In this document: piece after piece, positions 875 through 23,879 of the stretch | How positions within the stretch are numbered: the first letter of the stretch is position 1 | Layout of the letters: each line of letters starts with the position of its first letter | DNA from: an uncultured virus (IMG/VR IMGVR_UViG_3300034120_000663) | Lineage: Duplodnaviria > Heunggongvirae > Uroviricota > Caudoviricetes | IMG/VR virus record: IMGVR_UViG_3300034120_000663 | Length of the DNA stretch: 35,071 nucleotides | Direction: 5' to 3' (one strand) | Notes under the pieces: model-generated | What the model saw: only the letters and a program-made list of their open reading frames with translations | Database searches by the model: none | What the model was told of the DNA's origin: nothing | Program-made: the position numbers and the translations under genes

Positions 875-1107
875 GCGGTAAGCAGAGTCTCTTGGAGTGG
901 TTGCGCTGGATGGCCCTAATGGGCGTTGATAATGAAGTGGTCATGCTTCAGGGTGGAGCACTAGAGCGATGCGCTGAAGCAGCCGTTGAGATCGAACGGT
1001 TGCGGGCCGCTGGCGATGTGCTGTGTCGCTACGTCATCGAGAGTGGCCCTGGGTTGCATGACGACGAATCCGTTGTCGCCTACTGGCTGGAGGCCCGCCG
1101 TGAGTGA
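871..1107 (+). CDS. small hypothetical, 'EIERLRA' mosaic family
   Basis: GGAGG SD, ATGA overlap; contains AAVEIERLRA, ends EARRE. Confidence 0.7.
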   Translation: MSGKQSLLEWLRWMALMGVDNEVVMLQGGALERCAEAAVEIERLRAAGDVLCRYVIESGPGLHDDESVVAYWLEARRE

Positions 1108-1387
1108 GCGAGACATCGTGGAACGGCTGCGTGACGCGCACCAGACCGTACCGATCCCAGCCATTGCATCGCTCTACAGCAATGCTGCCGACGAGATCAA
1201 ACGGCTGCGTGCCGAGGTCAGGGGCTTTCAGGCTGAAAGCGGCTGCTGGCAGCGGTGGCACGACGCCGAGCGTGCCCTGGCCGACCAGTTGGCCGATGCG
1301 TTGCGAGATGAAGCCCGCAATCGCACACTGCGAGGGAGCGCTGCCCGAGCACTGGACGCCCACGAAGAGGCCCGCCGTGAGCGGTGA
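1100..1387 (+). CDS. small hypothetical, 'DIVERLRD/AADEIKRLRAE' mosaic family
   Basis: GTG at 1100 after GGAGG gives MSERDIVERLRD; similar to 23422-23700 and 20894-21160. Confidence 0.75.
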   Translation: MSERDIVERLRDAHQTVPIPAIASLYSNAADEIKRLRAEVRGFQAESGCWQRWHDAERALADQLADALRDEARNRTLRGSAARALDAHEEARRER

Positions 1388-1574
1388 GTGTGTTGCGTTC
1401 CAGTGGATCGGCCAGCCGATCACGTCATGCGATGGTTGCGGGAAGCCAGCATGGGAGCACGACTACTACCGAGGCTCTCCGTGGCAGGATTACCTCATCG
1501 CCACTTGGCTGGCGGATGGATTCATCAGCCGACAGCGAGCCGCAGCCCTACTCGTAGTGGAGGAGCGGTCATGA
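1377..1574 (+). CDS. small hypothetical with CxxC...H motif
   Basis: GTG in the junction linker gives MSGECVAFQWIGQ...CDGCGKPAWEH. Confidence 0.65.
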   Translation: MSGECVAFQWIGQPITSCDGCGKPAWEHDYYRGSPWQDYLIATWLADGFISRQRAAALLVVEERS

Positions 1575-1750
1575 GAAGTGGGCGGCACGACTTCGTCTGC
1601 GGCCAAGTCGCCTGGTTCGTGCGCCGCTGCTGGTGGGCGCTCAATCCATCACGAGCCGTGTGGTGCGACGACCTGGCGTGCAAGTGTAGGACATGCACCG
1701 TGGACGGGTGCTGGTGCCGGGAGGCCCGCTATGAGCAGCGCAATGACTGA
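1571..1750 (+). CDS. small Cys-rich hypothetical
   Basis: GGAGGAG SD and ATGA overlap; MRSGRHDFVC...CKCRTC...CWC. Confidence 0.55.
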   Translation: MRSGRHDFVCGQVAWFVRRCWWALNPSRAVWCDDLACKCRTCTVDGCWCREARYEQRND

Positions 1751-1844
1751 GGTGACGACCTTCTTGGCTGTCTGGCTGGTGTTCTCGGTCGTCGTCGGGC
1801 TTGTCGTCGGCCGCATCATCAAGGAGGAGGCCCGACGTGAGTAG
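1731..1844 (+). CDS. small single-TM membrane protein
   Basis: GGAGG then ATG at 1731; hydrophobic FLAVWLVFSVVVGLVVG; ends EEARRE. Confidence 0.6.
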   Translation: MSSAMTEVTTFLAVWLVFSVVVGLVVGRIIKEEARRE

Positions 1845-2019
1845 GTACTACTACGTATGCGCCACGTGTGGAAACAAGTGCGACACCATCGCCCCATCAG
1901 TTGTCATATGCACTCATAGACCCCTGAACAAACAGGGGTCGTCTCACACGGCAAAGAAACCAACACAATCCGTCGAAGTATCGAAGGAAGTATATGAGCA
2001 AGGGAAAGTACGTAATTAA
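1837..2019 (+). CDS. small zinc-ribbon-like hypothetical
   Basis: GTG in linker; YVCATCGNKC...ICTH. Confidence 0.6.
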   Translation: MSRYYYVCATCGNKCDTIAPSVVICTHRPLNKQGSSHTAKKPTQSVEVSKEVYEQGKVRN

Positions 2020-2272
2020 AAGCGGAGAACTGGCTGGCATGGCTTTGAGGTTTGCCAAGTTCAACAAGGGAACGATTGACTACCCGTTTCTGCGTTACAT
2101 GAACCCACGGTTCTCTAACGCCCCGAACACATACCGCATGCTCAGCACGTTGGTCAGGTACCAACTCCTACGAGAAGGAGAGAACTGCTACGTACTCACC
2201 TCCCTCGGAGAGGAAGCAGTGCGTCTGCTTGCCGAGCGTGACAGCAAAGTAACGGTAGGGATGACGACGTGA
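1994..2272 (+). CDS. putative winged-helix DNA-binding protein
   Basis: YRMLSTLVRYQLL...YVLTSLGEE resembles a wHTH recognition helix and wing. Confidence 0.55.
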   Translation: MSKGKYVIKSGELAGMALRFAKFNKGTIDYPFLRYMNPRFSNAPNTYRMLSTLVRYQLLREGENCYVLTSLGEEAVRLLAERDSKVTVGMTT

Positions 2273-2691
2273 GCGATATTGGATCAGGATGGCCTGACTA
2301 CCCAGGAAAGCGCCCGCCCAAGAACAGGGGCGCTGCTAAACCAACGACTCCGATCAGTGATCGACCCGACCTAAAGGGGAAGGTCTACAGAATCAAAGGA
2401 GTAGATGTTGAGTTGTTCACAATTGGCGAACTGGCTGGCGCAGTGCAGAGGAAGCCTGTTACACTGAGGATGTGGGAGTCAAGTGGGTGGATACCCAAGT
2501 CAAACTGGAGATCACCAACCCCACAAGGAACGCAGATTCCCGGCAAGACGACCCGTGGCCGAAGGCTGTACAGCAGGTCACAGGTAGAGTTGGTGGTCTC
2601 AGCAGTTGAGATGTTCAACATCAACGACCAGCGTCGTGCCGATTGGGCAGCGTTCAGAGAGCACATCAAAAAGCACTGGCTAGACCAGTAA
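2269..2691 (+). CDS. MerR-like HTH DNA-binding protein
   Basis: FTIGELAGAVQRKPVTLRMWESSGWIP...GRRLYSRSQV. Confidence 0.8.
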   Translation: MSDIGSGWPDYPGKRPPKNRGAAKPTTPISDRPDLKGKVYRIKGVDVELFTIGELAGAVQRKPVTLRMWESSGWIPKSNWRSPTPQGTQIPGKTTRGRRLYSRSQVELVVSAVEMFNINDQRRADWAAFREHIKKHWLDQ

Positions 2692-2726
2692 CTCCGCTAG
2701 ACGGAAACACACAAAGGAGATACGCC

Positions 2727-3452
2727 ATGATTAGGCGTCCAGCAAACACAAACAACACTCGCAACGACGAACGCGATGATGACGACGACGAGCAAGAGTT
2801 CAAGAAGCGCGACCGCAAGGTTGACGATGATGAAGAGGACGAGGAAGAGAGCAAGCCTCGCCCGTCAGCAGCCGGTAAGGTGATCAAGCGTGGCTGGGCA
2901 GCCGCCGACTCCCTTCAGTCGAAGAACTCGCCTTACGCCCAGTCGCTCAAGTTGAGCGAGAAAGCCATCATCGTCAAGTTCATCGAAGATGAGCCGTACG
3001 CGTCGTTCCGTCAGCACTGGGTGGAGCGCAAGGGACAGAAGTCCTTCGTCTGCATCGATGGGATTGACCCCAAGGGTTGTCCGCTCTGCGATGCCAGCAA
3101 CCGCCCCACCGACCGCTATTCGTTCAACGTAGTGCTGCTGTCGGCAGGCGGCGATGACCCCGTCATCAAGTCGTACGATGTGGGTGGCCGTGTCATCGAT
3201 CAGTTGCGTAACTTCCATCTGGACGACAAGCAGGGTCCGCTCAGCAAGCACTACTGGGCGATCAGTCGCAGCGGTACCGGTCCTCGCGCCTCTACGAACC
3301 ACCAGATGATTCGTGAGCGTGACTTGTCTGACTACGACCTTGAGGCACTGTCGGATTCGGACATCCGTGCCCTTCGCAAGGATGCGTACGATGAGTCCAT
3401 CGTGAACATCCCAAGCCGTAAGGAACTCTTGGAGATTGTCGACGAACTGTGA
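2727..3452 (+). CDS. ssDNA-binding protein (gp32-like)
   Basis: AAGGAG SD; KF...F.QHWV...FVC...CPLCD pattern; lies directly upstream of the DNA polymerase. Confidence 0.7.
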   Translation: MIRRPANTNNTRNDERDDDDDEQEFKKRDRKVDDDEEDEEESKPRPSAAGKVIKRGWAAADSLQSKNSPYAQSLKLSEKAIIVKFIEDEPYASFRQHWVERKGQKSFVCIDGIDPKGCPLCDASNRPTDRYSFNVVLLSAGGDDPVIKSYDVGGRVIDQLRNFHLDDKQGPLSKHYWAISRSGTGPRASTNHQMIRERDLSDYDLEALSDSDIRALRKDAYDESIVNIPSRKELLEIVDEL

Positions 3453-5536
3453 TCGGTAACGACTCACTGAGCAGCGGGAGGGTAACACCTCCCGCTGTTT
3501 CGTCTCTAGACGAAGTCCATTACATCGTTGAGAAGATCCGTGAGCACGGTGAGTTTGTGTTCGACGTAGAAACCCGTGGCAACGTGAGTAGGCACCCCGA
3601 GGTATCGTCACGCATGGAGGCGGAGTGGAGCAAGCACTTAGCCTCTTTGCGCACGGAGTCTCCATCAGTCATTGCCAGGTCTCGCTCTGCCTTTGAAGAG
3701 GAGTACAAGTCAGAGGTTGCTCTTGACCAACTCCTGAACGAGGTGTTCTGGATCGGCATTGCTCTGCCAGGAGAATCCTGGGCTATCCCGATGGGCCACA
3801 AGAACGGTGAAGTACTCGTTCCAGAAGAAGCCGGTGACGGAACAACTGTTCCACCTCCCGGCTATAGGAAGGTGCTTCAAAGCGGTAAAGAGTCTATGGC
3901 TAAGGCTAAGTACCGCATACCAGCACAGTTCAGCCCACCACCTGAGCAGTTAACCCGCTCAGACGTGTTCGACGTTCTTCGTCCCGTGTTCTTGGACGAT
4001 TCGATCACGAAGATCGGCCACAACATCAAGTTCGATGCACGGTCTGTGGCTAAGTACATTGGGCAGATCCCTAATGGGCCGTTTGTCGACACCATGATCA
4101 TGCAGTTCGTGCTTGACGAGAACCTGATGACGTACAAGTTGGAAGCCTTGATTGCTAACAACTTCGATGGGCATGATGCGTACCGTGGTGAGAAGTTGGG
4201 TTCACGAATCGACACAGTCTCATTCTCAAGTGCCTGTAATTACGTACACCTAGATGTCAGGTGGACGTGGATGCTCTACAAGAGGATGCTTCCGAAGATC
4301 ACATCAAGTGAGTCGCTCAGTACAGCGTTTTCCTTGGACATGGATGTCATCGAAGCACTCATGCACATGGAGCACACTGGTATTGAGGTTGACGCTGACA
4401 GGATGCGTGCTCTTGGGGTTGAACTTGACCACAGGAAGCAATCTGTGCTGATTGATATCGGAAAGTACGCATACAAGGGGTTCAACCCTGACTCCAACAA
4501 GGACAAGCAGGCGCTGCTCTTCACTCCAAAGGATGACGGTGGTCTTGGGCTAAAGCCAGTGAGGGTATCTGAGAAGACAAATGCCCCGTCTGTAGACGAG
4601 CAGTCACTGTCAGCACTTAAGCAGAAGCACCCGATTGTTCCGCTTTTGATGGAGTGGCAGGAAATCACAAAGTTGAAGGGCACGTACGTAGACGGACTAC
4701 TTCCCCGTCTCAGGTCTGGTCGCTTGCATCCTGACTTCAACCTGCACAGGGCCAAGACCTCTCGCCTGTCTGCCAGTAACCCGAACCTTCAGAACATCCC
4801 CAGAGAATCCTCACTACGAGAGTTGTTCGTAGCGAGTGAAGGCGAAGTGTTTATCGACGCTGACTACGACCAGATCGAACTGCGCGTCTTCTGCATGTAC
4901 TCAAAAGACCCAGTGATGAGCAGGTACTTCATCGATGGGATTGACATCCATAAGGGTGCCGCAGCGGCGGTCTTCAACAAGTCCGTTGAAGACGTGACCA
5001 AGGACGAGCGACAGATCGGAAAGATGGTCAACTTCTTGACCGGGTTCGATGGTGGCGCACAGAAACTGGCCGACAGCGCAGGCGTGTCTATCTCTGATGC
5101 TAGAAAGTTCATCGACCAGTACTACCGAAAGTTCCATGTTCTAGCAGCGTGGAAAGAGGACGTGCGGGCATCAGCCAGGAAAAAGGGATACGTTGAGACA
5201 CTGGCAGGACACCGAAGGCGGCTTCCAGATATCATGTCATCAAACGCCGAGTTGCGATCCAGAGCAGAGCGTCAAGCGGTAAACTCAAAGATTCAAGGTT
5301 CCGCAGCAGATATCTGCAAGGAGGCGATGGTCGCTGTGCACAAAGCATTCTCTGGTACAGACGCCAGGCTTCTTGTTCAGGTGCACGACGAACTTATCTG
5401 CGCTGTACCAAAGGACAGCGCCCATGAGTACATGGAAGTGCTCAAGACGGCGATGGGTCATGGTGTAGAGATCAACGGCATCCCACTTGTGGTCAGTGCT
5501 GCAATCGGTCCATCATGGGCAGAGGCAAAGGAGTAA
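3449..5536 (+). CDS. polA: DNA polymerase family A with 3'-5' exonuclease
   Basis: ExoI FDVET, ExoII GHNIKFD, SRLSASNPNLQNIP, motif A DYDQIELR, AERQAVNSKIQGSAAD, motif C VHDEL. Confidence 0.97.
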   Translation: MIGNDSLSSGRVTPPAVSSLDEVHYIVEKIREHGEFVFDVETRGNVSRHPEVSSRMEAEWSKHLASLRTESPSVIARSRSAFEEEYKSEVALDQLLNEVFWIGIALPGESWAIPMGHKNGEVLVPEEAGDGTTVPPPGYRKVLQSGKESMAKAKYRIPAQFSPPPEQLTRSDVFDVLRPVFLDDSITKIGHNIKFDARSVAKYIGQIPNGPFVDTMIMQFVLDENLMTYKLEALIANNFDGHDAYRGEKLGSRIDTVSFSSACNYVHLDVRWTWMLYKRMLPKITSSESLSTAFSLDMDVIEALMHMEHTGIEVDADRMRALGVELDHRKQSVLIDIGKYAYKGFNPDSNKDKQALLFTPKDDGGLGLKPVRVSEKTNAPSVDEQSLSALKQKHPIVPLLMEWQEITKLKGTYVDGLLPRLRSGRLHPDFNLHRAKTSRLSASNPNLQNIPRESSLRELFVASEGEVFIDADYDQIELRVFCMYSKDPVMSRYFIDGIDIHKGAAAAVFNKSVEDVTKDERQIGKMVNFLTGFDGGAQKLADSAGVSISDARKFIDQYYRKFHVLAAWKEDVRASARKKGYVETLAGHRRRLPDIMSSNAELRSRAERQAVNSKIQGSAADICKEAMVAVHKAFSGTDARLLVQVHDELICAVPKDSAHEYMEVLKTAMGHGVEINGIPLVVSAAIGPSWAEAKE

Positions 5537-5538
5537 CC

Positions 5539-5925
5539 GTGGACGAAGATGACGACATCTCATTTGCCCACCGCAAACGGTCGTTTCTGCTCAATCTATC
5601 CGTGCAGGACGGCAGGTCATTCACCGAGTTTGCAGGAATGCAGCCAACTTCTCCTGATGTTGCATTGAAGGAGATGGAAGACGTGATGCGGTACTGGGCG
5701 ACGTTGCGCATTGCCGGTGTCACTGATTCCATTGAAGAATCAGCGCAGTGGTTTGCTGACACGATGCAGGCAGCGAACGGCATGGGCGATACAGACACGG
5801 TTGTTGCGTACGCTCTAGTGGCATCGTTTGCCATGTCGGCAGTGATCAAACTTCTAGATGAGAAGTTGGTGTCACTAACCCACCCAGTGGATGTAAAAGT
5901 GCTCTATCTAGGAGATCAGAAGTGA
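5539..5925 (+). CDS. hypothetical protein
   Basis: AAGGAG SD then GTG at 5539; fills the gap in the operon. Confidence 0.7.
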   Translation: MDEDDDISFAHRKRSFLLNLSVQDGRSFTEFAGMQPTSPDVALKEMEDVMRYWATLRIAGVTDSIEESAQWFADTMQAANGMGDTDTVVAYALVASFAMSAVIKLLDEKLVSLTHPVDVKVLYLGDQK

Positions 5926-5928
5926 TGA

Positions 5929-6306
5929 ATGGGGGTCAACATGTCATCTGATTGGTGGGCTTCAAAACTTAGGTCAGATCAGCCGACTCAGCGTGCGCAG
6001 CAGCCAACGTACCCTGCGAGCAGCAGTAGGCCGCTTATCAACACCAACGCTCAGCGTATGGCGCACGATGAGCAGCCAGCAAGACCAACGTACACTGACG
6101 GGAAGATTCCCGTTATGGATGCGATCAAGCAATGGAAGGGAACGAAGGCCGCTCAGGCCATCGATTCGTGCCCGTCCTGCGGTGGCCCTCATGTGTTTGC
6201 CATTAGAGAAGGCGGCATCAACGGGGCAAGCCCAGCACCCAGGTGTTACGAGTGCGGGTGGAATGGCGGCAAGTTCATCCAAGGCGATCAGTCGTCGTGG
6301 ATCTAA
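5929..6306 (+). CDS. hypothetical with C-terminal zinc ribbon
   Basis: CPSC...RCYECG; start at 5929 or 5941. Confidence 0.75.
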   Translation: MGVNMSSDWWASKLRSDQPTQRAQQPTYPASSSRPLINTNAQRMAHDEQPARPTYTDGKIPVMDAIKQWKGTKAAQAIDSCPSCGGPHVFAIREGGINGASPAPRCYECGWNGGKFIQGDQSSWI

Positions 6307-6315
6307 GGGAGACAT

Positions 6316-7323
6316 ATGTTGCAGGAAATTGACAGCATTATTGCTGACGTAAATAAGAAGTATGGAGATGACACCGTAGTAAAGGGTAGTCGTATCCATA
6401 AAGAACTGCCGCGTATTACGACTGGTGTTCTGTCCTTCGACCTAATGCTGGGAGGAGGGTGGCCCGTAAACCAGTGGTCAGAGATCATTGGTAATGAGTC
6501 ATCGGGCAAGACTGCCCTTGCGTACAAGACCATCGCAGCCAACCAGGCACTAGACCCAGAGTGGACAGCGATGTGGGTAGCGGCAGAGGAGTACGTCCCA
6601 GCCTATGCTGAAGCAATCGGTGTCGATCTAGACCGCTTGTGGGTCGTTGAGACCAACGTGATGGAGTACGTGTACGACATCTCTCTACGTGTGCTTGACA
6701 AGCGTGCAGTGGACTGCATTGTCATCGACTCGTTGCCTGCGCTCGTACCCTCAGTTGAGGACGAGAAGGAGATGATGGAGATGACGATGGGCCTTGGTGC
6801 CCGCATCACCGGAAAGTTCCTCCGCAAGTCAGGACGTGCACAGCGCAGGTCGTTGGTAGAGACCGAGCGTGGGTGCACTGGTTTGATCATCAATCAGTGG
6901 AGAGACAAGATCGGTGTCATGTACGGCGATCCGCGCACCACTCCTGGTGGTAAGGCCAAGAACTTCCATTACTTTGCCCGTGTAGAAGTAGCACGTGATG
7001 AGTGGATCACCGAGAAGGATGAGAAGGTCGGCCAGTCGATCCGTGCAAAGACCTTGAAGAACAAGACCTACCGTCCCTATCAGGATGCGGTCGTGGACTT
7101 CTTCTTTACTGACACGAAGGGGTTCTCCCTTGGGTCATTCGATGTCATCAAGGACATGGTCAACACTGCCATGTCGCTGGGCATCATCAACCGGCGAGGT
7201 GCCTACTACTCGTTTGCTGAGCAGCAGTGGCAGGGCAAAGACGCCACATACCAGGCATTCAGGGAAGACCTGGATATCCAGAACGCACTAAAAGAAGCAG
7301 TAATCGGAGCAGTACTGAAATGA
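6316..7323 (+). CDS. recA: RecA/UvsX recombinase
   Basis: TG.LSFDLMLGGG, Walker A GNESSGKT, VIDSLPALVP, INQWRDKIGVMYGDPRTTPGG. Confidence 0.96.
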   Translation: MLQEIDSIIADVNKKYGDDTVVKGSRIHKELPRITTGVLSFDLMLGGGWPVNQWSEIIGNESSGKTALAYKTIAANQALDPEWTAMWVAAEEYVPAYAEAIGVDLDRLWVVETNVMEYVYDISLRVLDKRAVDCIVIDSLPALVPSVEDEKEMMEMTMGLGARITGKFLRKSGRAQRRSLVETERGCTGLIINQWRDKIGVMYGDPRTTPGGKAKNFHYFARVEVARDEWITEKDEKVGQSIRAKTLKNKTYRPYQDAVVDFFFTDTKGFSLGSFDVIKDMVNTAMSLGIINRRGAYYSFAEQQWQGKDATYQAFREDLDIQNALKEAVIGAVLK

Positions 7324-7859
7324 GCAAGAGTACGTATGACTGGGTTGGTGCGATCATTACCGCATCAGGTAACTCGTTTGACCTGAGTGAACCCAAGGCA
7401 GAGCAGGTGTCGCTAGAGGATGTGGCCCAGGCACTGTCTCTCACATGTCGATACAACGGACACATTCCGTTCTTCTACTCAGTAGCAGAGCACTCGTTCC
7501 GAGTAGCGCACTGGCTAGAGAACTCTGGTGAGTATCCAGAGGTGGTGCTTACCGGACTTCTCCACGACGCAGCAGAAGCGTATGTAGGGGACATGGTTCG
7601 CCCACTGAAGCGAACTGAGCCGCTGGGCACTCTCTTCCAAGAAGCAGAGCATCGTGCAGCGGTAGCAGTGCATGAGAAGTTAGGCGGCATGTACCCATAC
7701 CCACGTGAGGTGCACGCAGCAGACAAGCACGTGTATGAGTGGGAAGTAGAGAACATCCGCACAGGTAGGGTTCCTGGCTGGCCACCTGAGCATGCGCGCA
7801 ACCTCTTCATTGAGCGATATCACCAGTTGGTCAATCAGATTAGCGAGGAGTCAAAGTGA
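7320..7859 (+). CDS. HD-domain phosphohydrolase (YfbR/YfdR-like nucleotidase)
   Basis: CRYNGH..FYSVAEHS...LLHDAAEAYVGDM; ATGA overlap with recA. Confidence 0.85.
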   Translation: MSKSTYDWVGAIITASGNSFDLSEPKAEQVSLEDVAQALSLTCRYNGHIPFFYSVAEHSFRVAHWLENSGEYPEVVLTGLLHDAAEAYVGDMVRPLKRTEPLGTLFQEAEHRAAVAVHEKLGGMYPYPREVHAADKHVYEWEVENIRTGRVPGWPPEHARNLFIERYHQLVNQISEESK

Positions 7860-13829: not shown

Positions 13830-14311
13830 TGCTCGTGATGCACCTGGACGTTCTAGCGTTACCAGGGGATAGCGTCGCAGCCCGCCAACCTTCACTAGAA
13901 GGAAGGCGTTTGTGGAACATCCTATTCCCAGCATTCTCTGGGCGCATTGTGCTGCTAGCAGACAGCGGCACTAACGACGAACTTCTTCTCTCTTGGCTAA
14001 AGAGCGAAGGGTACAAACCGTCTATGGTGCATACCGCTAAAGAGATGCACACCGTAGGCTCTAACTCCAGAGCGGATGCCGTGTGGGATCTTTCTGCGGT
14101 GATTGGGAAGGTCACGTGGTACGTGGACGTAGACCCAGAGACGTGTGCCTACGTAATTGCTAAAGGCGTACCCACACTTCTAGTGGCGGTTCCCACCATC
14201 TCCCGGCCAGAATGGCGAGAGCCAAAGGCTGTTCGTGGGTGGGACAAGATCACCCAAGAGATCGATCAGCAGCAGCGTGCTCGCGCCGAACGAGAGTGGG
14301 TAGAGGAATGA
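13829..14311 (+). CDS. degenerate HAD-fold-like protein
   Basis: MLVMHLDVL start strand and WYVDVDP...GVPTLLV end resemble HAD motifs I and IV; the first catalytic Asp is missing. Confidence 0.55.
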   Translation: MLVMHLDVLALPGDSVAARQPSLEGRRLWNILFPAFSGRIVLLADSGTNDELLLSWLKSEGYKPSMVHTAKEMHTVGSNSRADAVWDLSAVIGKVTWYVDVDPETCAYVIAKGVPTLLVAVPTISRPEWREPKAVRGWDKITQEIDQQQRARAEREWVEE

Positions 14312-15735
14312 AACTCTGGCTTGGCGGAGGCGAGAAAAGCGCCCATCGATCTATGCTGCTCGCATCAGGAGTGAAGCGGGTAGCGGTAAACCTTACTCAT
14401 CTACCTGTTCCAAAGAAGAAAGAGTTCGTCATCTCCTCTGTGTTTCCGAACGCAGAGGTTCTTCTTTACACGTCAGAGAACGACGAGCAACTGGATAAGT
14501 ACGACGAGTTCGTACGTACGCACGCAGATCATCTCAGTGTCGTTATCGGTCGTCCCGACTACAATGGAGACTGGCTAGGGAGCAAGTACGTTCCTATTTG
14601 GAACGATGACCAGGACGTAGAGCGTCTTGCCTTCCTGTGCCAGAAGCACAGCCGTGTAGCGGTGTCAGACAAGGCAATCACGCCTAAGACCATGCCGAGG
14701 ATCAAGCAGTTGTCTTCACGGTGGAGCACTGAGTTGGTGGGCATCACCAGCAAGACAGACTTCATCGAACAGATTGAGTGGGCTGACGTAGTAGTCAATT
14801 CGTGGACAAGTTCTGTCCGCTACGGAGAGACGCAAGTGTTTGACGGGCACGGGATGCGTCGGTACCCAGCACAGAGCAAAGAGACTGCTAGGCGAGCGCA
14901 TAGATCTGACATCGCACGTCTTGGTGTTGACGTGGAAGCAGTGCTATCGGATGACGCTCACTCGCTAGGAGAACTTGCCATCAAGTCGTGGCTTGCCTGG
15001 GAGGCAAACAAATTGGCCTATGACCCCTCCAACACTGAAGACGAAGATGAGTTCCGTGCACCATCTCTTGAGGGATTAGCAACTATTCCTGAAAAACCCC
15101 ATACCCCCCATTCAGGGGATTCTGGTAGGTCAAGTATTGCTATCGCGAGGGTAAATAAGCGGCACGAAAGCGAGAAGGAATTGCTACCCGTAATGGGTAT
15201 CGAAACCATCACTTCGCTGGGGTCGCAGACCTATACAAATGAAGGGGAAGAACTAGAAATCGACCCCGAAACGGTTCCGATCATTCGGTCTTCTTCCGAG
15301 TCAGTTCGGCAATGCAATAGTTGCTATCTCGCCTCAAAGTGCCCTGGTTTCAGAGAAGATGCAGACTGCGCATACCGCATGCCAGTTGAGATCAGGACTA
15401 AGGATCAACTCCAGGCTGCACTTCGCAGCATTCTTGAGATGCAAGTTGGGCGAATCATGTTTGCTCGCTTTGCAGAAGAACTAGAAGGACAGGGTGTCGA
15501 CGTACAACTCTCCAAAGAAATGGAGAGGTTCTTCAAGATGGTTGAGCAGTTCAAAGACATATCCGATACCCGAGAGTTCGTTCGCATGGAGATTGAGACC
15601 AGATCTAGTTCCGGTGTTCTTTCACGACTGTTCGGATCTAAGGTAGGAGAGTCTGCTAGGGAACTCCCGCAGCACATTGGCACGTTTGAAATCGACTCAG
15701 TAGCATCATCCATTCTGGATCAAGATGATGTTTGA
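14308..15735 (+). CDS. large hypothetical: possible degenerate TGT-like barrel plus Cys-cluster domain
   Basis: GAGG SD, ATGA overlap; SW.S..RYGE..VFDG; CNSC-x4-C-x8-C. Confidence 0.7.
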   Translation: MKLWLGGGEKSAHRSMLLASGVKRVAVNLTHLPVPKKKEFVISSVFPNAEVLLYTSENDEQLDKYDEFVRTHADHLSVVIGRPDYNGDWLGSKYVPIWNDDQDVERLAFLCQKHSRVAVSDKAITPKTMPRIKQLSSRWSTELVGITSKTDFIEQIEWADVVVNSWTSSVRYGETQVFDGHGMRRYPAQSKETARRAHRSDIARLGVDVEAVLSDDAHSLGELAIKSWLAWEANKLAYDPSNTEDEDEFRAPSLEGLATIPEKPHTPHSGDSGRSSIAIARVNKRHESEKELLPVMGIETITSLGSQTYTNEGEELEIDPETVPIIRSSSESVRQCNSCYLASKCPGFREDADCAYRMPVEIRTKDQLQAALRSILEMQVGRIMFARFAEELEGQGVDVQLSKEMERFFKMVEQFKDISDTREFVRMEIETRSSSGVLSRLFGSKVGESARELPQHIGTFEIDSVASSILDQDDV

Positions 15736-16160: not shown

Positions 16161-16190
16161 GTGACAGTTGTGTTACGTGGATGGTAGAGT
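16161..16190 (+). promoter_or_regulatory. sigma70-type promoter
   Basis: GTGACA-18 nt-TAGAGT with a TGn extension. Confidence 0.5.
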
Positions 16191-16194
16191 AGTC

Positions 16195-16310: not shown

Positions 16311-16326
16311 TACGGAGGTATATCTC

Positions 16327-16896: not shown

Positions 16897-16926
16897 TTAA
16901 GTATCCATTCACACAAGGAGAACAAC

Positions 16927-17304: not shown

Positions 17305-17305
17305 C

Positions 17306-18385: not shown

Positions 18386-18488
18386 CCTTGTCCTGAATGT
18401 ACACGATAGTAGCGTACCCATTCATCAGGTTTGGGTGCCAGTATGTACGCATGTACTCAAACCAGTCTTGACGCTGATTTTCGTCCAT
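18375..18488 (-). CDS. 37-aa hypothetical protein
   Basis: GGAAGGA SD then ATG: MDENQRQDWFEYMRTYWHP...; below the ORF-track cutoff. Confidence 0.4.
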   Translation of the reverse strand: MDENQRQDWFEYMRTYWHPNLMNGYATIVYIQDKVTE

Positions 18489-18544
18489 GTCCTTCCACAC
18501 ACCGAAGGACTCACCGATCTCAGGTGCTGATCCGATAGCCATTG

Positions 18545-18775
18545 TTATCGTCCGATGATGTTGTCGAAGCGCATCTGATATCGACTAACGGTGCATGTGC
18601 ACTCATCGATTTTGCTGTTCTTGTGCCAAGAGCACCATGAGGCATGGGCAAGAACGCCATTCTGTTGAATATCATCCCACCACTGAACAATGGCAAGCAG
18701 TTGCGAGCGCATCTCGGAGTTTTCATTCGCAAGCCACCCACGCTCGTTCTCGCCGTCCCGGTACGTCAGCATCAT
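18545..18775 (-). CDS. hypothetical protein
   Basis: ATGA overlap; H..WC...CTC. Confidence 0.6.
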   Translation of the reverse strand: MMLTYRDGENERGWLANENSEMRSQLLAIVQWWDDIQQNGVLAHASWCSWHKNSKIDECTCTVSRYQMRFDNIIGR

Positions 18776-18987
18776 GACAACTCTTCTTTCTCGTCCTCTA
18801 CCATGACTTCAACCTCTGTAAACGACGCATTACTACCCCATCCAAATCGGAAGTAGTCAAATCCGCCATCTACAAAGATGAAGTTCTCCCTGTCCTCGCA
18901 GTTGCACGTGACAAAGTTGTGTCGCCATTTAGATACGATAGTCGTATCACAGTGGTTGCAATGTAACCCTTTTGCTACCTTACTCAC
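18772..18987 (-). CDS. small zinc-binding phage protein
   Basis: AAGGAG SD then GTG; C..C...I.S..RH.F..C.C.....VDGG..Y.R motif common in phages. Confidence 0.75.
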   Translation of the reverse strand: MSKVAKGLHCNHCDTTIVSKWRHNFVTCNCEDRENFIFVDGGFDYFRFGWGSNASFTEVEVMVEDEKEELS

Positions 18988-19228
18988 GTGGTGCTCCTTC
19001 TTTTCCGATCTTGTTTGGGTACTTATGGGAGTTGAAGTAGTCAATCAACTCATGTAAGTCGCTTTGTGACATGGGCTGAACCTCATCAACTACAAGGGTA
19101 CGTCGTTGCTGGTTGAGCCTGTACAGCACAGATTCTTGCCAAGGCAGCAACTCCATTTCAAAGGTGTCACGTATGAACTGGACTTGCTCTGCGGTAGTGG
19201 GGTGAGGCAAGGGGATGTCACTGTTCAT
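18980..19228 (-). CDS. hypothetical protein
   Basis: ATGA overlap at 19225-19228. Confidence 0.6.
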   Translation of the reverse strand: MNSDIPLPHPTTAEQVQFIRDTFEMELLPWQESVLYRLNQQRRTLVVDEVQPMSQSDLHELIDYFNSHKYPNKIGKEGAPRE

Positions 19229-19575
19229 GCGACTTCCGTCCAGTACTCCCAACATGTTTCTCCTTCACATTCGCCTTTGGCATTACGCCGAAAGCGCGCC
19301 CATTGCTGTCGGTACTTCGTGCGGTATCGCTTGACGTGCTCGTACTTCAACACCTTGAAGAGCGTCACTTCGGTTGCCACCGAATATGAGCCAGCCTCTT
19401 CTTCACTTACGATCTCCTCTGGGCCGCAGACCCATTCCGACCAGTCAGACCAGGGGTACTCAATCTCAAACTGGGCAATGGTCGGCAACATACTTTCTTC
19501 CTTTCCATGCCATACAGAAGGCTCACCAACCATTCGTGCAATGGGCTTTGGGATGGTTGGGTAGTTACCGCTCAT
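19225..19575 (-). CDS. hypothetical protein
   Basis: GAGGT SD, ATGA overlap. Confidence 0.65.
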   Translation of the reverse strand: MSGNYPTIPKPIARMVGEPSVWHGKEESMLPTIAQFEIEYPWSDWSEWVCGPEEIVSEEEAGSYSVATEVTLFKVLKYEHVKRYRTKYRQQWARFRRNAKGECEGETCWEYWTEVA

Positions 19576-19796
19576 AGTTCAACCTCAAGTCTTTCTTGGT
19601 TGGCTCTCCACTTTTCTTGACGGACATGTCTACGGAGTTCACGCTTGTACTTGCGAATTGCTCCGCTACGGGTGATTCCGTGTGCCCGGTACATCCAGAT
19701 GTACGTGTAAAGAGTTTCCTTGGTATAGCGTGTTACCGCTTCCCAGCGGAACCGGCCTACTCGTACAACGGTAATGTCGTACTTAGTGTCGCTCAT
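19572..19796 (-). CDS. basic hypothetical protein
   Basis: ATGA overlaps on both sides. Confidence 0.65.
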   Translation of the reverse strand: MSDTKYDITVVRVGRFRWEAVTRYTKETLYTYIWMYRAHGITRSGAIRKYKRELRRHVRQEKWRANQERLEVEL

Positions 19797-20083
19797 GGCC
19801 GACCCGCGTTCCAGAGCGCTGCCGCCATCGCGCCCTCGGCATCGTGCCGGGGCGACTCCATCCAGCAGTCACACACGTGTTCGTTGCTGTACGCCTGCTT
19901 CTTGGGGCACCAATAGCCACGAAGCCTGCAGCCGCGATCGTGCTTGTCGGCGTGGTGCCCGCAATAGGTGCAGCGGCCATCCTCGTCGTACATCATCCGA
20001 CCGATGCGGTTGTAGTACGGGAACTTCCCGACAATCATCCACTCCCGGCGGTCGACGCTGTAGGTGTAGGTAGGTGCCCTCAC
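19793..20083 (-). CDS. Cys/His-rich hypothetical protein
   Basis: GTGA overlap; CTYCGHH..H...C...CDC. Confidence 0.65.
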   Translation of the reverse strand: MRAPTYTYSVDRREWMIVGKFPYYNRIGRMMYDEDGRCTYCGHHADKHDRGCRLRGYWCPKKQAYSNEHVCDCWMESPRHDAEGAMAAALWNAGRP

Positions 20084-20448
20084 GACGCACCACCAGTCGT
20101 CGGGTGCAGCGTGACGGTGCCATCAGCGGCGAGGTGGATGACGGCGATACGCCGAGAACCGGCATTCTGGTCTGCTAAATCCCTAGATAAACAAGATACA
20201 ACCAGATCACGCCCGACCGGGAGCCATGGGTAGACGTTGATCCACCGCTCAGGGTACGTCGGCGGCGGTTCGACCTTGACCCAGTTACCGTTGATGCGGA
20301 ATGAAGCCTCCCACTCTACGCCGTCGGGGAAGTTACCGATTGCGAGAAGGCACTCTTTGCCGACTGCTGTCACGGTGATCATCTTGCCCTCCGACCAGTT
20401 CGGTCGGCGCACTTGGTCACCGACCTGCGGAATGTATTCGTTGTTCAT
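20080..20448 (-). CDS. hypothetical with SH3/KOW-like N-terminus
   Basis: GAGGGAG SD; PQVGDQVR...ITVTAVG. Confidence 0.7.
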   Translation of the reverse strand: MNNEYIPQVGDQVRRPNWSEGKMITVTAVGKECLLAIGNFPDGVEWEASFRINGNWVKVEPPPTYPERWINVYPWLPVGRDLVVSCLSRDLADQNAGSRRIAVIHLAADGTVTLHPTTGGAS

Positions 20449-20458
20449 TTGTTCTCCC

Positions 20459-20641
20459 TCATTGTCTGCTTTGGTGTTCGACTACCAACTGTAGTCCTGT
20501 TACTTGATAACGACGGTGATTCCACGCACGTACTGTGTACATGTCGCGGTAAAGATGAGTAACCCAGTCACGTACATCTGCCTCCGTAATACCGGAGCAT
20601 GCTGCCAGGAGTGATGCCATGTCATTCACGACTATTCCCAC
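20459..20641 (-). CDS. hypothetical protein
   Basis: Fills the gap; start uncertain. Confidence 0.45.
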   Translation of the reverse strand: MGIVVNDMASLLAACSGITEADVRDWVTHLYRDMYTVRAWNHRRYQVTGLQLVVEHQSRQ

Positions 20642-20901
20642 TCAGGGTGGAGTAGGCGGTGCGTCTGGCAGGGCCAGAAGCGGCGGCAGGCAGTGCACTG
20701 CGGGTCATGTTCGGGTGCAGCGTCGGGCTGGTGCAGGGCGTCGATGGCGTCACGTTCAGCCCGTAGCCGTTCGATCTCGTCCAGCAGTTCACGGCGACGC
20801 GGGTCGATGTGGAACATGCCGCGAGTGCCTCTCGGCGTCATCATCCACTCGCCACTGATACGGCGATACTTGACATTGCCAATCACGATGTCGTCAGCCA
20901 C
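20632..20901 (-). CDS. mosaic-family protein (DEIERLRAERDAIDALHQP...CxxC..WPC)
   Basis: Starts at the linker GTG; paralogous to 23422-23700. Confidence 0.75.
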   Translation of the reverse strand: MADDIVIGNVKYRRISGEWMMTPRGTRGMFHIDPRRRELLDEIERLRAERDAIDALHQPDAAPEHDPQCTACRRFWPCQTHRLLHPEWE

Positions 20902-21160
20902 GACGGGCCTCCTCGTAGGCGGCTAGTGCATCGCAAACGGCAGACCACACCTTGTCTGTGTGTGCTGTCGGGCGGTCGGCTTTCACCGCCGCCAACGCCA
21001 TTGCCATCTGGTCTGCCAGGGCACGTTCTTTATCGATGATCTCAATCTTATTGATAAGCACGTTGATGGCCTTTGCTATGTCGCCCCTCAACTGGTTGAT
21101 CTTGTTCTCCGCCTTATCCAGGGCGGCTACGACCTCATCCATTGATTCCATATTGGTCAT
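20894..21160 (-). CDS. mosaic-family coiled-coil protein (ERALADQ...EEARRG)
   Basis: C-terminal half matches 1100-1387; start at 21160 or 21151. Confidence 0.7.
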   Translation of the reverse strand: MTNMESMDEVVAALDKAENKINQLRGDIAKAINVLINKIEIIDKERALADQMAMALAAVKADRPTAHTDKVWSAVCDALAAYEEARRG

Positions 21161-21323
21161 CCTCCATTCGTTGGAGAGCATCGGCAATATCCTCTGCCCA
21201 GTCAGGACTACACGTACACACTTCACCCCAGTAATAATCATCAGTACTGGTGATTACTGTTGCCCTCGGCTCCTCTTCGTCTGACCATCGGTCATGTCGA
21301 AGTACTGCGTAGGTTCTCTTCAC
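21135..21323 (-). CDS. acidic hypothetical protein
   Basis: GGAG SD, GTGA overlap. Confidence 0.55.
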   Translation of the reverse strand: MKRTYAVLRHDRWSDEEEPRATVITSTDDYYWGEVCTCSPDWAEDIADALQRMEDDQYGING

Positions 21324-21745
21324 TTTTGGTCTCCAGTCGGCCATACATAGGGAAGGTTGTCAGGAACGGTCGGCCAAACCAATCCATAGATATCGGGGCG
21401 CTTTCGCACAAGGTTTGAGCGATGCGAAAGCATGATGTCTTCACGGCTAAGCCACGCAGGCCAGGACGAGTCCATCGTTGGGGCCATCGGGTAGAACCGC
21501 TCCAGCATTGTGTCGTTGAATCCTCGCTTAATCCATTCACGGCACATTGCAATACCGTACTGAGCGAGTGCTTCTACGTGACCATCCCACATCTTGACAG
21601 CAGGGTGGTTCTTCCACCCATACGTAGGGGTGGTAAGAGACAGAACGATCTGCCACGCTTCTACACGCTGCTTGGAGAGTCTCTGCTGATCAAGCACACG
21701 GGCGTTAGCGGCAAAGTCTGCTCCATATGGTACGAACGTTTGCAT
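21320..21745 (-). CDS. MSMEG_6728-family / pyrimidine-dimer DNA glycosylase-like protein
   Basis: MQTF.PY.DF...A.VLD..RL.KQRVEA.QI...GW.NHPAV.MW...EW..RG..D...SHRSNL.RK.P..Y. Confidence 0.85.
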   Translation of the reverse strand: MQTFVPYGADFAANARVLDQQRLSKQRVEAWQIVLSLTTPTYGWKNHPAVKMWDGHVEALAQYGIAMCREWIKRGFNDTMLERFYPMAPTMDSSWPAWLSREDIMLSHRSNLVRKRPDIYGLVWPTVPDNLPYVWPTGDQK

Positions 21746-21746
21746 A

Positions 21747-22013
21747 TCAACCAGCCTTTGCTTCTTCAAGTAGACGAATCGTCAGTTGCTCGTACAGGGG
21801 CTTCACGTCCATCATCCGTCTCCGCTTAGCGGACGTTGCTGCCCAGATGCCCTCAGAGTCTGTCTCAATCGCTTCGATGAGGCACTCCAGGTTTACCGGG
21901 CACGATGCACACAACTTCTTAATCTTGTTGGGCATCGGCCCTTTGTCGTTGTCAAAGAACATAGGAAACGACATGTCTTTGCATGCCGCTCGCTGCATCC
22001 AGTCTTTGTTCAT
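21747..22013 (-). CDS. whiB: WhiB-family regulator
   Basis: WMQRAACK....FF....CASCPV...CL..A.....GIWAATS...R. Confidence 0.88.
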   Translation of the reverse strand: MNKDWMQRAACKDMSFPMFFDNDKGPMPNKIKKLCASCPVNLECLIEAIETDSEGIWAATSAKRRRMMDVKPLYEQLTIRLLEEAKAG

Positions 22014-22026
22014 GTGGTTCTCCTTG

Positions 22027-22902
22027 TTACTTGTTGCTCTTGACGGCAGCGGCCAATGAAGTCGGCTTGCCACTCTTATTGATAAGAGACGGCTTGGTGA
22101 ACCCTGCTGTATTGATCGGCATTTCGCCACCGAAGATGAGATACGAATCGCACCCTACTTTACGATGGTCGTTCATGTGCCTCCGTATCGAAGAGGCTGT
22201 GGGCACGAACGAACCATGTGGCAAAGCGTTGATCGCACACATGAGGTTTGCTGTCTTGCCCTGGAACTCACTTGCTAGAGCAAGCGACGCAACCATTCGC
22301 CCATTTACCTCTGGGTACGCATCGAACGAAAGCAGTTGCTCTGAGCCAGGCAGGTCGGCAAGAGCAGCGGAGAGCACACCGGAACTCCCGAGGTGGTTGG
22401 TGAACGGCTGCACTCCAGTAACAGGTGCAACGTATGTGCGAACAGTTTCCCAACGGTATACGAGCGTTCCCCAGTCGGACGTGCCGGGGTCGAACTCATC
22501 GCCCATGTCCCATGCGGCCATCCAGGAAACGTGAGGGAGCCAGAAGTCGATTGCTTCCTGACGAACCGCGGGGTCATCGCTCCAGATACGAGCGTCGTAC
22601 ACGACGGTTTTCATACCAGCGTTGGCATTGATCACCGTGAGTGCCAGGTACTGATCAGGCGGCAGGTAGCGAGACCCAGGGTTGGCAGCCGTGTAGTCGG
22701 ACGGGGGAGGCAAACAAGGCCCGAACGTGACGTTGATGCCAGCGTCCTTAGCGAGGGAATTGGCCTTGCGTTGAGCAAGAGGATCGGTAGGGTTCACTCC
22801 GCAGAACGCCCATGCCTGGGCTACTGGTCTTGCTGGTGATCCTTGGCATCCGCCGATCATGGTTAGGGCGGAGATAATCGCCGCCACAATACGCTTAGTC
22901 AT
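22027..22902 (-). CDS. lipoprotein, putative glycoside hydrolase-like barrel
   Basis: MTKR-hydrophobic-IGGC lipobox-like; AWDMGDE and SFDAYP resemble clan GH-A motifs. Confidence 0.65.
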   Translation of the reverse strand: MTKRIVAAIISALTMIGGCQGSPARPVAQAWAFCGVNPTDPLAQRKANSLAKDAGINVTFGPCLPPPSDYTAANPGSRYLPPDQYLALTVINANAGMKTVVYDARIWSDDPAVRQEAIDFWLPHVSWMAAWDMGDEFDPGTSDWGTLVYRWETVRTYVAPVTGVQPFTNHLGSSGVLSAALADLPGSEQLLSFDAYPEVNGRMVASLALASEFQGKTANLMCAINALPHGSFVPTASSIRRHMNDHRKVGCDSYLIFGGEMPINTAGFTKPSLINKSGKPTSLAAAVKSNK

Positions 22903-22931
22903 GTGGTTCTCCTTTTCGTAGTTACATCTTA

Positions 22932-22958
22932 CACGCTGTCTCACCATGAGACAACGTG
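22932..22958. repeat. palindrome copy 4 (extended hairpin)
   Basis: CACGC-TGTCTCA-CCA-TGAGACA-ACGTG. Confidence 0.9.
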
Positions 22959-23150
22959 GGTGATGAAGTTATCATCCTTGTTGAGATCACGACGGGCCTC
23001 CCAGTAGGCGACGGTCATAGCCATGCACGACCAACATCCACCGCACGGAGGCCACGACCAGCAGTCATGCTTGTGGTCGGCTTCGGTGTGGTGCGAGTCC
23101 GGCTCACCGCCCATGTGCGCCTTGCAGCGACAGAGCGGCTCACCGCTCAC
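22941..23150 (-). CDS. Cys/His-rich hypothetical protein
   Basis: Starts at the linker GTG (MSGEP). Confidence 0.6.
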   Translation of the reverse strand: MSGEPLCRCKAHMGGEPDSHHTEADHKHDCWSWPPCGGCWSCMAMTVAYWEARRDLNKDDNFITHVVSW

Positions 23151-23425
23151 GACGTGCCTCCTGGTTGGTGTCCTTCACGTAGCCACTGACTTTCGGCCCA
23201 CTTGCGAACCCACAACCGTTCGGTTGTCCATCGGCGGCGAGCAATCATGGACACAGGTTCCTCGGTGCGAACCAAACCGCCAACGGGCAAAGTGCCGGTG
23301 ATTTCGTACTCGTCTTCAAGTTTGACAACTCGTGATTGGTCGGTGCGATACCAGCCAGCAGAGGGTGGTGGTGGAACGTGTCCGCAATGCGGGCACTTGT
23401 CATCAGTCATCGGCTCACCGCTCAC
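23147..23425 (-). CDS. hypothetical with CPHCG motif
   Basis: Starts at the linker GTG (MSGEPMTDDKCPHCG). Confidence 0.65.
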   Translation of the reverse strand: MSGEPMTDDKCPHCGHVPPPPSAGWYRTDQSRVVKLEDEYEITGTLPVGGLVRTEEPVSMIARRRWTTERLWVRKWAESQWLREGHQPGGTS

Positions 23426-23700
23426 GACGGGCCTTCCTCGGGGTGGAGCAGGACGTGCGTCTTGCAGGGCCAGGGTTCGGTGAAGCAGACGCAGCACCAT
23501 TCACGATCGAACTGCGCTTCGGGCTGATGCAGTGCGTCGATGGCGTCACGCTCGGCCAGCAGCCGTTCGATCTCGTCGGCGGCTTCGCATCGCACGCACC
23601 CGACGCCGAACAACTCAGCGAGACCTGTCGACAGGCGGATTTCACCAGTCGGGGTCATGTGTAGGTGATCACGCAGTCGCTCCACAATGTCACCGCTCAC
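23422..23700 (-). CDS. mosaic-family protein (DIVERLRD...AADEIERL...WPC)
   Basis: Linkers at both ends; paralogy within the window. Confidence 0.75.
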   Translation of the reverse strand: MSGDIVERLRDHLHMTPTGEIRLSTGLAELFGVGCVRCEAADEIERLLAERDAIDALHQPEAQFDREWCCVCFTEPWPCKTHVLLHPEEGPS

Positions 23701-23879
23701 GACGGGCCTCCTGCCATGCGCTTGACGATGGCGTCACACAGCGCCTCGGCCAGTTCGTGGATGCGCAACTGGATGTCGTCGCCGGACGTGTCGATCCACG
23801 CGCTACCGGCGTTCATGAACGAGTGATCTCGCTCGTGCAGCACCTCGTCGATGATGGGGTACAACTCATCCTTGGTCAT
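23697..23879 (-). CDS. hypothetical protein
   Basis: GAGGAG SD then ATG (MTKDELYPII). Confidence 0.65.
   Translation of the reverse strand: MTKDELYPIIDEVLHERDHSFMNAGSAWIDTSGDDIQLRIHELAEALCDAIVKRMAGGPS

Follow-up and report, generated by a model that had tools for sequence, protein, structure and literature searches.

The 35,071-nucleotide stretch described here (IMG/VR record IMGVR_UViG_3300034120_000663, Caudoviricetes; 'the window' below means this whole stretch) is part of an uncultured phage of actinobacteria, and our subject is a 23-nt motif that recurs at the gene boundaries of its two arrays of small genes. This motif joins the ribosome-binding site and start codon of one gene to the stop codon of the preceding gene, which can be read in either of the two other frames, and gene swaps between related phages break at it. 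The genes of the window run rightward up to ~18.4 kb and leftward beyond; they include two WhiB-like genes, a family A DNA polymerase (PolA) ~33% identical to Streptomyces phage polymerases, a UvsX/RecA-like recombinase, a Cas4-like exonuclease, RuvC-like and RusA resolvases, a queuine tRNA-ribosyltransferase-like gene and a glycosyltransferase. The G+C content of the backbone is mostly 52–57%, with 64.5% in the last 4 kb; the plus-strand array has 63.1% against ~53–56% around it, and the first segment of the minus-strand array has 62.5%.

An earlier note, made from the letters of the window, had listed nine variants of a 22-nt linker, eight of them at gene boundaries. All nine can be read directly in the sequence, at 1089, 1366, 1720 and 1826 on the plus strand and, by highest coordinate, at 23711, 23436, 23161, 23001 and 20912 on the minus strand. 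Eight do lie at gene boundaries, and the copy at 23001–22980 is internal to the gene 22941..23150, as the note had it. Its account of the three reading frames also holds: upstream genes end in EARRE-stop (1107, 1844), EARRER-stop (1387) or EARRG-stop (20894) in one frame and in GGPS-stop (23697), EGPS-stop (23422) or GGTS-stop (23147) in the other, while the downstream proteins start with MSG(D/E), MSER, MSS or MADD. Four copies lie within three mismatches of the 22-mer against 0.00 expected (100 shuffles), and the remaining five differ at 5–6 positions. In our own dinucleotide shuffles of the window (100 per pattern), the seven matches to the 22-mer at up to five mismatches compare with a shuffle mean of 0.05 (maximum 1), the ten at up to six with a mean of 0.57 (maximum 3), and the seven matches to the 14-mer GGAGGCCCGTCGTG at up to one mismatch with a mean of 0.01 (maximum 1). 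The copies and the arrays of motif-led genes (cassettes) that they delimit are as follows; stops and starts refer to the genes joined.

871..2019 (plus): plus-strand array, made up of 871..1107, 1100..1387, 1377..1574, 1571..1750, 1731..1844 and 1837..2019
860..881 (plus): degenerate copy (GGGAGGACAGCCATGAGCGGT; GGGAGGACAGCCATGAGCGGTAAG), the tenth match to the 22-mer; ATGA stop of the open reading frame (ORF) 410..874, start of 871..1107 (MSGKQ...)
1089..1110 (plus): junction motif, allele ...GTGAGTGAGCGA; stop of 871..1107 (EARRE-stop), start of cassette 1100..1387 (MSERDIVERLRD...)
1366..1387 (plus): junction motif, two mismatches; stop of 1100..1387 (EARRER-stop), start of cassette 1377..1574 (MSGECVAFQ...)
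1720..1741 (plus): diverged motif with an ATG start (GGAGGCCCGCTATGAGCAGCGC); starts the 37-amino-acid membrane mini-protein 1731..1844
1826..1847 (plus): junction motif (GGAGGCCCGACGTGAGTAGGTA); stop of 1731..1844 (EARRE-stop), candidate GTG start of ORF 1837..2019
22941..23993 (minus): first segment of the minus-strand array, made up of 23697..23993, 23422..23700, 23147..23425 and 22941..23150
23690..23711 (minus): junction motif, exact 22-mer; stop of 23697..23993 (GGPS-stop, GTGA overlap), GTG start of cassette 23422..23700 (MSGDIVERLRD...)
23415..23436 (minus): junction motif, one mismatch; stop of 23422..23700 (EGPS-stop), start of cassette C, 23147..23425 (MSGEPMTDDKCPHCG...)
23140..23161 (minus): junction motif, one mismatch; stop of cassette C (GGTS-stop), start of cassette F, 22941..23150 (MSGEPLCRCKAH...)
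22980..23001 (minus): internal motif copy within cassette F, 22941..23150 (AYWEARRD...; the gene ends ...AYWEARRDLNKDDNFITHVVSW-stop), at the end of the array segment; neither start nor stop
20632..21241 (minus): second segment of the minus-strand array, made up of 20894..21241 and 20632..20901, both coiled-coil mosaics of cassette family A
20891..20912 (minus): junction motif, allele GGAGGCCCGTCGTGGCTGACGA; stop of 20894..21241 (EARRG-stop), start of cassette 20632..20901 (MADDIVIGN...)
20094 (minus): a still weaker copy, which starts ORF 19793..20083

The gene 1571..1750, upstream of the diverged motif 1720..1741, ends 20 nt beyond.

The anatomy of the motif becomes apparent when the window is compared with its relatives. 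Sixteen sequences were compared, namely the window, its nearest record G001, parts or all of five further records (G002–G006) and nine loci; L023/L024 and L028 were left out as duplicates of G004 and G006. A profile of 71 instances gives the consensus joint (A/G)GGAGGCCCGTCGTGAGCGGTGAC, 23 nt long and sharply edged: conservation extends from −1 to +22, and the information content drops to ~0.1 bit just beyond either edge. Within it lie the Shine–Dalgarno sequence GGAGG, a 6-nt spacer, a GTG start followed by codons for Ser-Gly-Asp/Glu, and TGA stops in both other frames. Positions 16–22 carry 0.7–1.25 bits although they were not part of the selection of instances, and the spacer CCCGTC and codons 2–4 are more conserved than Shine–Dalgarno sequence, start and stops demand. 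At up to three mismatches to a 16-mer of the motif, 82 instances were found in the 16 sequences. The position of the start is fixed, with GTG in 76/82 and ATG in 6/82, and GGAGG stands 6 nt ahead of it in all 82. An ORF of at least 25 codons opens from this start in 78/82; the other four are the internal copies of the window and G001 and two weak matches in G006. In each sequence the instances occupy one strand, the exception being the window, where the arrays follow two local gene directions. The motif is asymmetric, with neither symmetry nor hairpin and no significant fold (z-scores from −0.55 to +0.75 in five folds support no RNA structure), no terminator-like site fell on a motif in a scan of both array regions, and a scan with the sigma-70 consensus placed no promoter-like site on any motif and found 0 and 2 in the two array regions, which is the level of shuffled sequence.

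Both stop frames are in regular use. Among 61 consecutive motif-led pairs, the upstream gene ends at GTGA in 18 and at the second-frame stop (at +16, +19, +22 or +28) in 31, and 12 pairs have other genes between them; the directly chained junctions therefore number 49, with GTGA used at 18/49 and the second frame at 31/49. Stop and start overlap by 4 nt in the GTGA case and by 8–20 nt, mostly 11, in the other, and never leave a gap. The stop that is not used is still present at 25/31 second-frame junctions and at 17/18 GTGA junctions.

The genes joined in this way are diverse. With the motif-encoded ends masked, the 78 motif-led proteins fall into 37 families, the largest of which, family A (28/78), consists of coiled-coil pieces in loose mosaic combination (DIVERLR, EIERLR, ERALADQ, ...EARRER); others comprise WhiB-like proteins, small Cys-rich proteins and the 37-amino-acid membrane peptide. 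The window cassettes matched no Pfam family and no named PHROG, the nearest being one sub-threshold DUF4795 match and one unnamed PHROG. Homologous cassettes have ratios of nonsynonymous to synonymous substitution (dN/dS) of 0.00–0.41, and the frames set by the motif start are therefore real. The frequent combination of an MSGDIVERLR N-terminus with an ...EARRER C-terminus in family A might suggest that one ancestral small gene was duplicated in tandem again and again, and that the motif is what remains of its two conserved ends where they overlap at each junction, and the earlier note had itself named a single duplicated C-terminus as the explanation that would undo its linker. We consider this very improbable: the 78 genes represent 37 families with unrelated bodies, the GGPS-stop frame is read at 18 of the 49 chained junctions, and conservation stops sharply at +22 and −1 with no decay into the genes. 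In G004, a complete 46-kb genome with terminal repeats, the array is moreover flanked by two replication genes that use the motif: one with DnaB-like helicase PHROG matches ends in the first copy, and the last copy provides the start of a 314-amino-acid protein whose PHROG matches are primase-like.

The earlier note further supposed that cassettes are shuffled at the linker, with synteny breaking on it. Gene order around the motif is indeed not conserved in relatives: family C occurs as A-C-F in the window, B-C-A in G004 and A-C-J in L030; family F as C-F-end in the window and A-F-D in G005; and family J as A-J-B in L027 and C-J-A in L030. As to the breakpoints, the supposition is supported, since homology is lost inside the motif in pairwise alignments, with the correction that a second word, EIERLR, lying inside genes, is a breakpoint too. 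When cassettes C and F are aligned with 100–120 nt of flank (C against G004 and L030, F against G005), the sequences are unrelated before the left motif, homology opens in that motif, the bodies are 82–96% identical, and homology is lost within or just past the right motif. The crossover point varies within the motif among these alignments; the window and G005 copies of F, for example, diverge after GGGAGGCCCG. Shared blocks respect the motif as well: a 98% block common to the window and L028/L029 begins exactly at the motif 1089..1110, and a 96% block shared with L017 (1720–1840) covers the diverged motif. BLAST comparisons of all pairs among the 16 sequences yield 320 block ends no more than 300 nt away from a motif; 104 of these are located in the 34-nt stretch from −5 to +28, where a uniform spread would place 5.7%.

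The closest comparison is with G001, which is 99.9% identical to the window over 11.5 kb (23545–35071) and 95% identical elsewhere, the difference being confined to the array; a related-locus search with the 306-amino-acid gene beside the array returned G001 alone. Between 23545 and 23010 the window has three genes and G001 has one fused gene instead. On the right, the breakpoint falls sharply on the motif copy 23001, where homology with the F cassette of G005 breaks too; on the left, it falls at the word GAGATCGAACGGCTGC (EIERL), in its copy at 23558..23574. At copy 20912 the window and G001 carry unrelated downstream genes.

The EIERLR word is a 17-nt in-frame sequence, GAGATCGA(A/G)CGGCTGCG, with 33 copies at up to two mismatches in the 16 sequences. 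It links differing N- and C-terminal halves of family A proteins and looks like a mid-gene joint for domain shuffling; it could alternatively reflect conservation at the protein level combined with preferred codons. In the window it lies as follows.

23558..23574 (minus), 988–1004 (plus), 1193–1209 (plus) and 20762–20778 (minus): EIERL word GAGATCGAACGGCTGC(T)G, second mosaic joint

Since breakpoints also fall on this word, exchange has the look of general recombination driven by homology, for which any shared word will serve, and of no property specific to the linker. The same observation bears on the possibility that cassettes are cut and joined at the motif by a site-specific system of their own, be it integron-like or of another type. 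Such a system would account for promoterless genes of one orientation, arrays bounded by a single repeat and a rapid turnover of content, and G004 does carry a tyrosine (phage-type) integrase ~4 kb downstream of its array. Integron arrays, however, are built on attC-type imperfect inverted repeats that form a hairpin and have an IntI-type integrase adjacent, while the motif here is asymmetric and without a significant fold; a scan of 63 window ORFs found no integrase, no recombinase lies within the window arrays, and none is consistently adjacent to the motif. The crossover position varies inside the motif, and the unrelated EIERLR word hosts breakpoints as well, as general homologous exchange predicts. 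Taken together, this makes a dedicated system a very unlikely explanation.

Could the shuffling have been produced by short-read assemblers that jump between genomes at the repeat? All genomes compared are metagenome contigs, the array is broken up among the Logan contigs of four lake runs, and one end of the G001 contig (position 1, window ~20640) lies inside an array cassette. Independent samples nevertheless yielded identical arrangements: G004 shows 99.98% agreement over 10,957 nt with a contig of a second sample, and the eight copies of L028 recur in L029 in mirror order. The window arrangement is present at 0.78–1.00 of sampled words in 24 lake-water metagenome runs, and its copies 23436 and 23711 are bridged without differences by contigs of other lake runs. 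A 23-nt repeat is, moreover, shorter than the k-mers at which assemblers usually finish, and we regard an artefact as highly improbable. It is the converse influence that is probable, namely that the shared joints break short-read assemblies of these phages: among the 22 loose contig ends listed of 52, nine lie at motif edges, ten flank EIERLR and three lie elsewhere. Two further signals are not counted as evidence. The word depth at 23642–23758 is ~100 and 84 in two runs against ~5–8 elsewhere, a depth that sums other organisms, and a contig joint from 20914 to 23011 (10 other letters, side of 31, two runs) has 90% likeness and a short side. Both are consistent with motif-flanking sequence that is common to many genomes.

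The arrays belong to uncultured lake-water phages of actinobacteria. A search of assemblies for the 22-mer, as the earlier note had proposed, returned 27 exact occurrences in 17 IMG/VR viral contigs; at 2–3 mismatches to the 16-mer the arrays reach nine copies within 2–3 kb, always on the coding strand. Three loci with the motif came from a metagenome contig collection. Among GenBank phage DNA (INPHARED), neither array region had a match in near or distant mode, and a 32-nt query around the motif had none at E ≤ 10 in 50,697 records. The genomes of 185,579 prokaryote species yielded one match, which lies in a 1-kb contig of a metagenome-assembled genome and therefore gives no clue to a prophage or host. 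A full-text literature search found no paper containing the 16-mer, and a concept search on linker and boundary sequences found nothing nearer than the papers compared at the end of this text.

Some carriers of the arrays have unrelated core genes. At E ≤ 1e-8, G004 matches the window only in the array region 21747–23700, and its array has 63.5% G+C, like the rest of its genome (62%). G006, on the other hand, is collinear with the window across the replication genes (PolA 53% and RecA-like protein 75% identical in amino acids), and its array occupies the same slot with different cassettes. The G+C contrast in the window and the sharing across lineages fit a pool of cassettes of ~63% G+C moving between phages. 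A related-locus search with the G004 helicase found G004 itself, its twin contig and one diverged relative (helicase 79% identical) that lacks the motif and in which the slot from helicase to primase is filled by other genes; its nucleotide identity to G004, 76%, is too low for breakpoints to be placed. That relative, L042, also has a long ORF region past the primase (3095–4447), with tandem PGLRQR/ARVYGN-type repeats readable in several frames.

We think it fairly probable that the motif is a start-associated translation joint and, at the same time, a short conserved boundary at which accessory genes are exchanged by homology. On the translational side, the sequence itself shows that the upstream gene is stopped in whichever of the two other frames it arrives, either by the TGA that overlaps the start (GTGA) or by the TGA 8 nt later. 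Ribosomes would then pass from gene to gene by termination–reinitiation; the overlap of 4 or 11 nt between stop and start, without a gap, makes this probable, and overlapping stop–start pairs are described as coupling translation (PMC6728339). On the DNA, the same 23 nt at each boundary would offer a short conserved boundary sequence, an accepted but rarely observed route to mosaicism according to the relevant part of PMC3029335. Homologous exchange between copies, within a genome or between co-infecting phages, could then insert, delete, replace or reorder whole genes and leave the reading frame and expression of both neighbours intact. The travelling cassette would consist of the start half of one motif, the gene body and the stop half of the next, and the motif would persist because every exchanged cassette carries it and needs it for expression. 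That the swaps arose through homologous exchange between motif copies is what the comparisons point to, and the UvsX/RecA-like, Cas4-like, RuvC-like and RusA enzymes may have taken part; their genes are present, though nothing links them to the events.

Several observations weigh against this reading. Breakpoints of phage mosaics fall at gene boundaries as a rule under any mechanism, and since every boundary of an array carries the motif, the coincidence of motif and breakpoint is no proof of cause. The other 216 of the 320 near-motif block ends lie elsewhere, many of them at the EIERLR word or in diverging genes, and at copy 20912 the similarity to G001 fades ~30 nt upstream of the motif, with no clean single crossover. 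All the evidence for exchange consists of comparisons between metagenome contigs; 23 nt is close to the minimum on which recombinases act; and it is the stop–start overlap by itself that suggests translational coupling. Both stops, furthermore, are conserved no better than the remaining positions of the motif. The word is therefore conserved as a unit, with no sign of selection on frame-independence; a test for such selection, in the form of better retention of the unused stop than of other positions, was negative, and we do not claim it. Finally, a bound factor would explain the conservation of the spacer and of codons 2–4 equally well.

This last point leads to the most serious alternative, in which the motif is primarily a start-associated regulatory sequence, bound as mRNA or DNA by a phage or host factor (protein or RNA) that co-regulates early genes; breakpoints would then coincide with it merely through its place at gene starts, and recombination there would be incidental. 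The fixed register to the start codon, the restriction to the coding strand and the location in non-structural (replication/early) regions all accord with it, and conservation exceeds what a Shine–Dalgarno sequence and start codon need, as in the start-associated sequence (SAS) of cluster K mycobacteriophages (described in part of PMC3203893). The motif also stays constant while synonymous sites saturate: its copies differ at only 1–4 of 23–24 positions, and dS between homologous cassettes reaches values of 0.6–3.4 overall, 0.6–0.9 apart from one pair at saturation. Another start motif of fixed form, CAAGGAGAACCAC with ATG within a few bases, has 13 copies (at up to two mismatches) against 1.14 expected, and this over-representation indicates that the phage uses fixed initiation regions. 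No candidate binding factor was found, however, and RNA structure is absent, as stated above. Regulation would also leave unexplained why motif cassettes are common to phages with unrelated core genes, why the G+C content of the arrays is foreign to the window backbone, and why a breakpoint falls at copy 23001, which is not a start. As the whole explanation we consider regulation unlikely, and it is in any case compatible with the translation joint that doubles as a boundary for exchange.

A bolder extension of that joint is possible, albeit doubtful. Freshwater actinophages of unrelated backbones might share a pool of small genes with a universal 23-nt adaptor, with EIERLR as a mid-gene adaptor, selected for exchangeability itself and not for translation alone. 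Were this so, any cassette or half-protein could be inserted into any array and be expressed at once, whatever its frame, and the community would possess a recombinase-independent standard connector for the combinatorial evolution of host-takeover or anti-defence genes. On a more modest scale, the arrays bear on the debate over whether mosaicism stems from illegitimate recombination followed by selection or from homologous exchange at short shared linkers: with a 23-nt word that marks almost all boundaries of whole arrays, in 17 viral contigs or more, the linker model becomes testable in a defined system. The motif also predicts the true starts of dozens of ORFan genes, flags hyperplastic accessory regions and explains assembly breaks in these abundant lake phages.

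Other features of the window and its relatives deserve mention. Just ahead of the degenerate copy, at ~836–874 (plus), lies a longer joint encoding ...(T/N)NGSASATDVGG(Q/P)(P/S)-stop, which is appended to unrelated proteins just ahead of a motif copy; in the window its tail, ...TDVGGQP-stop, directly precedes 860..881, and further copies occur in L012 (4479–4507), G005, G002 and L020. It looks like a half-motif followed by a ~30-nt insert and a full motif. Between two motif copies on the minus strand, at 20912–22990, a 2.1-kb block of 54% G+C contains a lipoprotein-like ORF, a WhiB-like gene and a pyrimidine-dimer DNA glycosylase (Pfam Pyr_excise, 8.5e-24), and could have been inserted into the array; contigs of two lake runs have a short joint that skips the block, which carries little weight. 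The queuine tRNA-ribosyltransferase-like (DpdA-like) gene at 14212–15735 (plus; PHROG 887, 7.8e-32) hints at 7-deazaguanine modification of the phage DNA. Copies of CAAGGAGAACCAC are found in the lower-G+C backbone, at genes preceded by an intergenic gap, and they suggest that the starts of the WhiB gene and of the lipoprotein-like ORF are better placed at ~22013 and ~22902.

16914–16926 (plus), and 22014–22026, 22903–22915, 24163–24175, 25565–25577, 26845–26857, 30567–30579 and 33946–33958 (all minus), among others: second start motif CAAGGAGAACCAC

How does the array motif relate to systems already described? Overlapping ATGA/GTGA pairs with translational coupling by termination–reinitiation (PMC6728339) share with it the 4-nt GTGA overlap (here at 18/49 junctions) and a Shine–Dalgarno sequence inside the preceding gene. 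Such generic overlaps have neither an invariant 23-nt word nor a second-frame stop, and 31/49 junctions here overlap by 8–20 nt. The boundary sequences of the modular theory, developed for lambdoid phages and cited in PMC3029335, are likewise short shared sequences that let general recombination swap modules. That source, in the part concerned with mosaic junctions, calls conserved boundary sequences unidentifiable at most of them. In the arrays the same word is carried by both partners, which are related on one side of it and unrelated on the other (window and G001 at 23001; C against G004 and L030; F against G005). The array motif departs from the linkers of that theory in being one sequence at most boundaries of whole arrays, and in doubling as a stop/start signal.

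Two further systems come closer. The promoter-early stem-loop (PeSL) of T4-type phages, according to the relevant passages of PMC2839356 and PMC4122927, is also a repeated expression signal between small, mostly ORFan genes in hyperplastic regions, where indels and replacements among close relatives are bounded by the repeat and homologous recombination between copies has been proposed. PeSL is described there as an intergenic boundary of transcription units, with a sigma-70-type promoter and a terminator hairpin, whereas the motif here has neither, is translational, lies within overlapping coding sequence and has less than half the length. PeSL mini-circles have been shown physically, while exchange here is read from contig comparisons.

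The closest likeness is to the SAS of cluster K mycobacteriophages, with a similar motif in Microbacterium cluster EF phages, as portrayed in passages of PMC3203893 and PMC7302621. Both motifs are short and asymmetric, with a Shine–Dalgarno core inside; both occur in many copies of a single orientation (ten in the window, up to nine per array in relatives), at the ribosome-binding sites of genes of different families and only in non-structural regions; and in both, conservation extends beyond pairing with 16S rRNA and the upstream stop sometimes lies inside. A bound regulator is the role proposed for SAS in that part of PMC3203893. As given in these passages, SAS has 13 bp (GGGATAGGAGCCC, or GGGAAAGGACCCC in the EF type) and precedes the start codon, mostly ATG, by 3–7 bp, an inverted-repeat extension (ESAS) lies upstream of about half of its copies, and the EF copies lie beside non-coding intergenic gaps. 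The array motif differs in sequence, spans 23 nt that include the GTG and three more codons, has no intergenic gap and provides stops in two frames; it also marks mosaic breakpoints, a role that the passages do not give to SAS. With sequence, position of the start and upstream gap all failing to agree, the array motif is SAS-like in its working and not a member of SAS. It is a natural case of the old linker idea of phage mosaicism, and by analogy it would appear to work in the manner of both SAS and PeSL.

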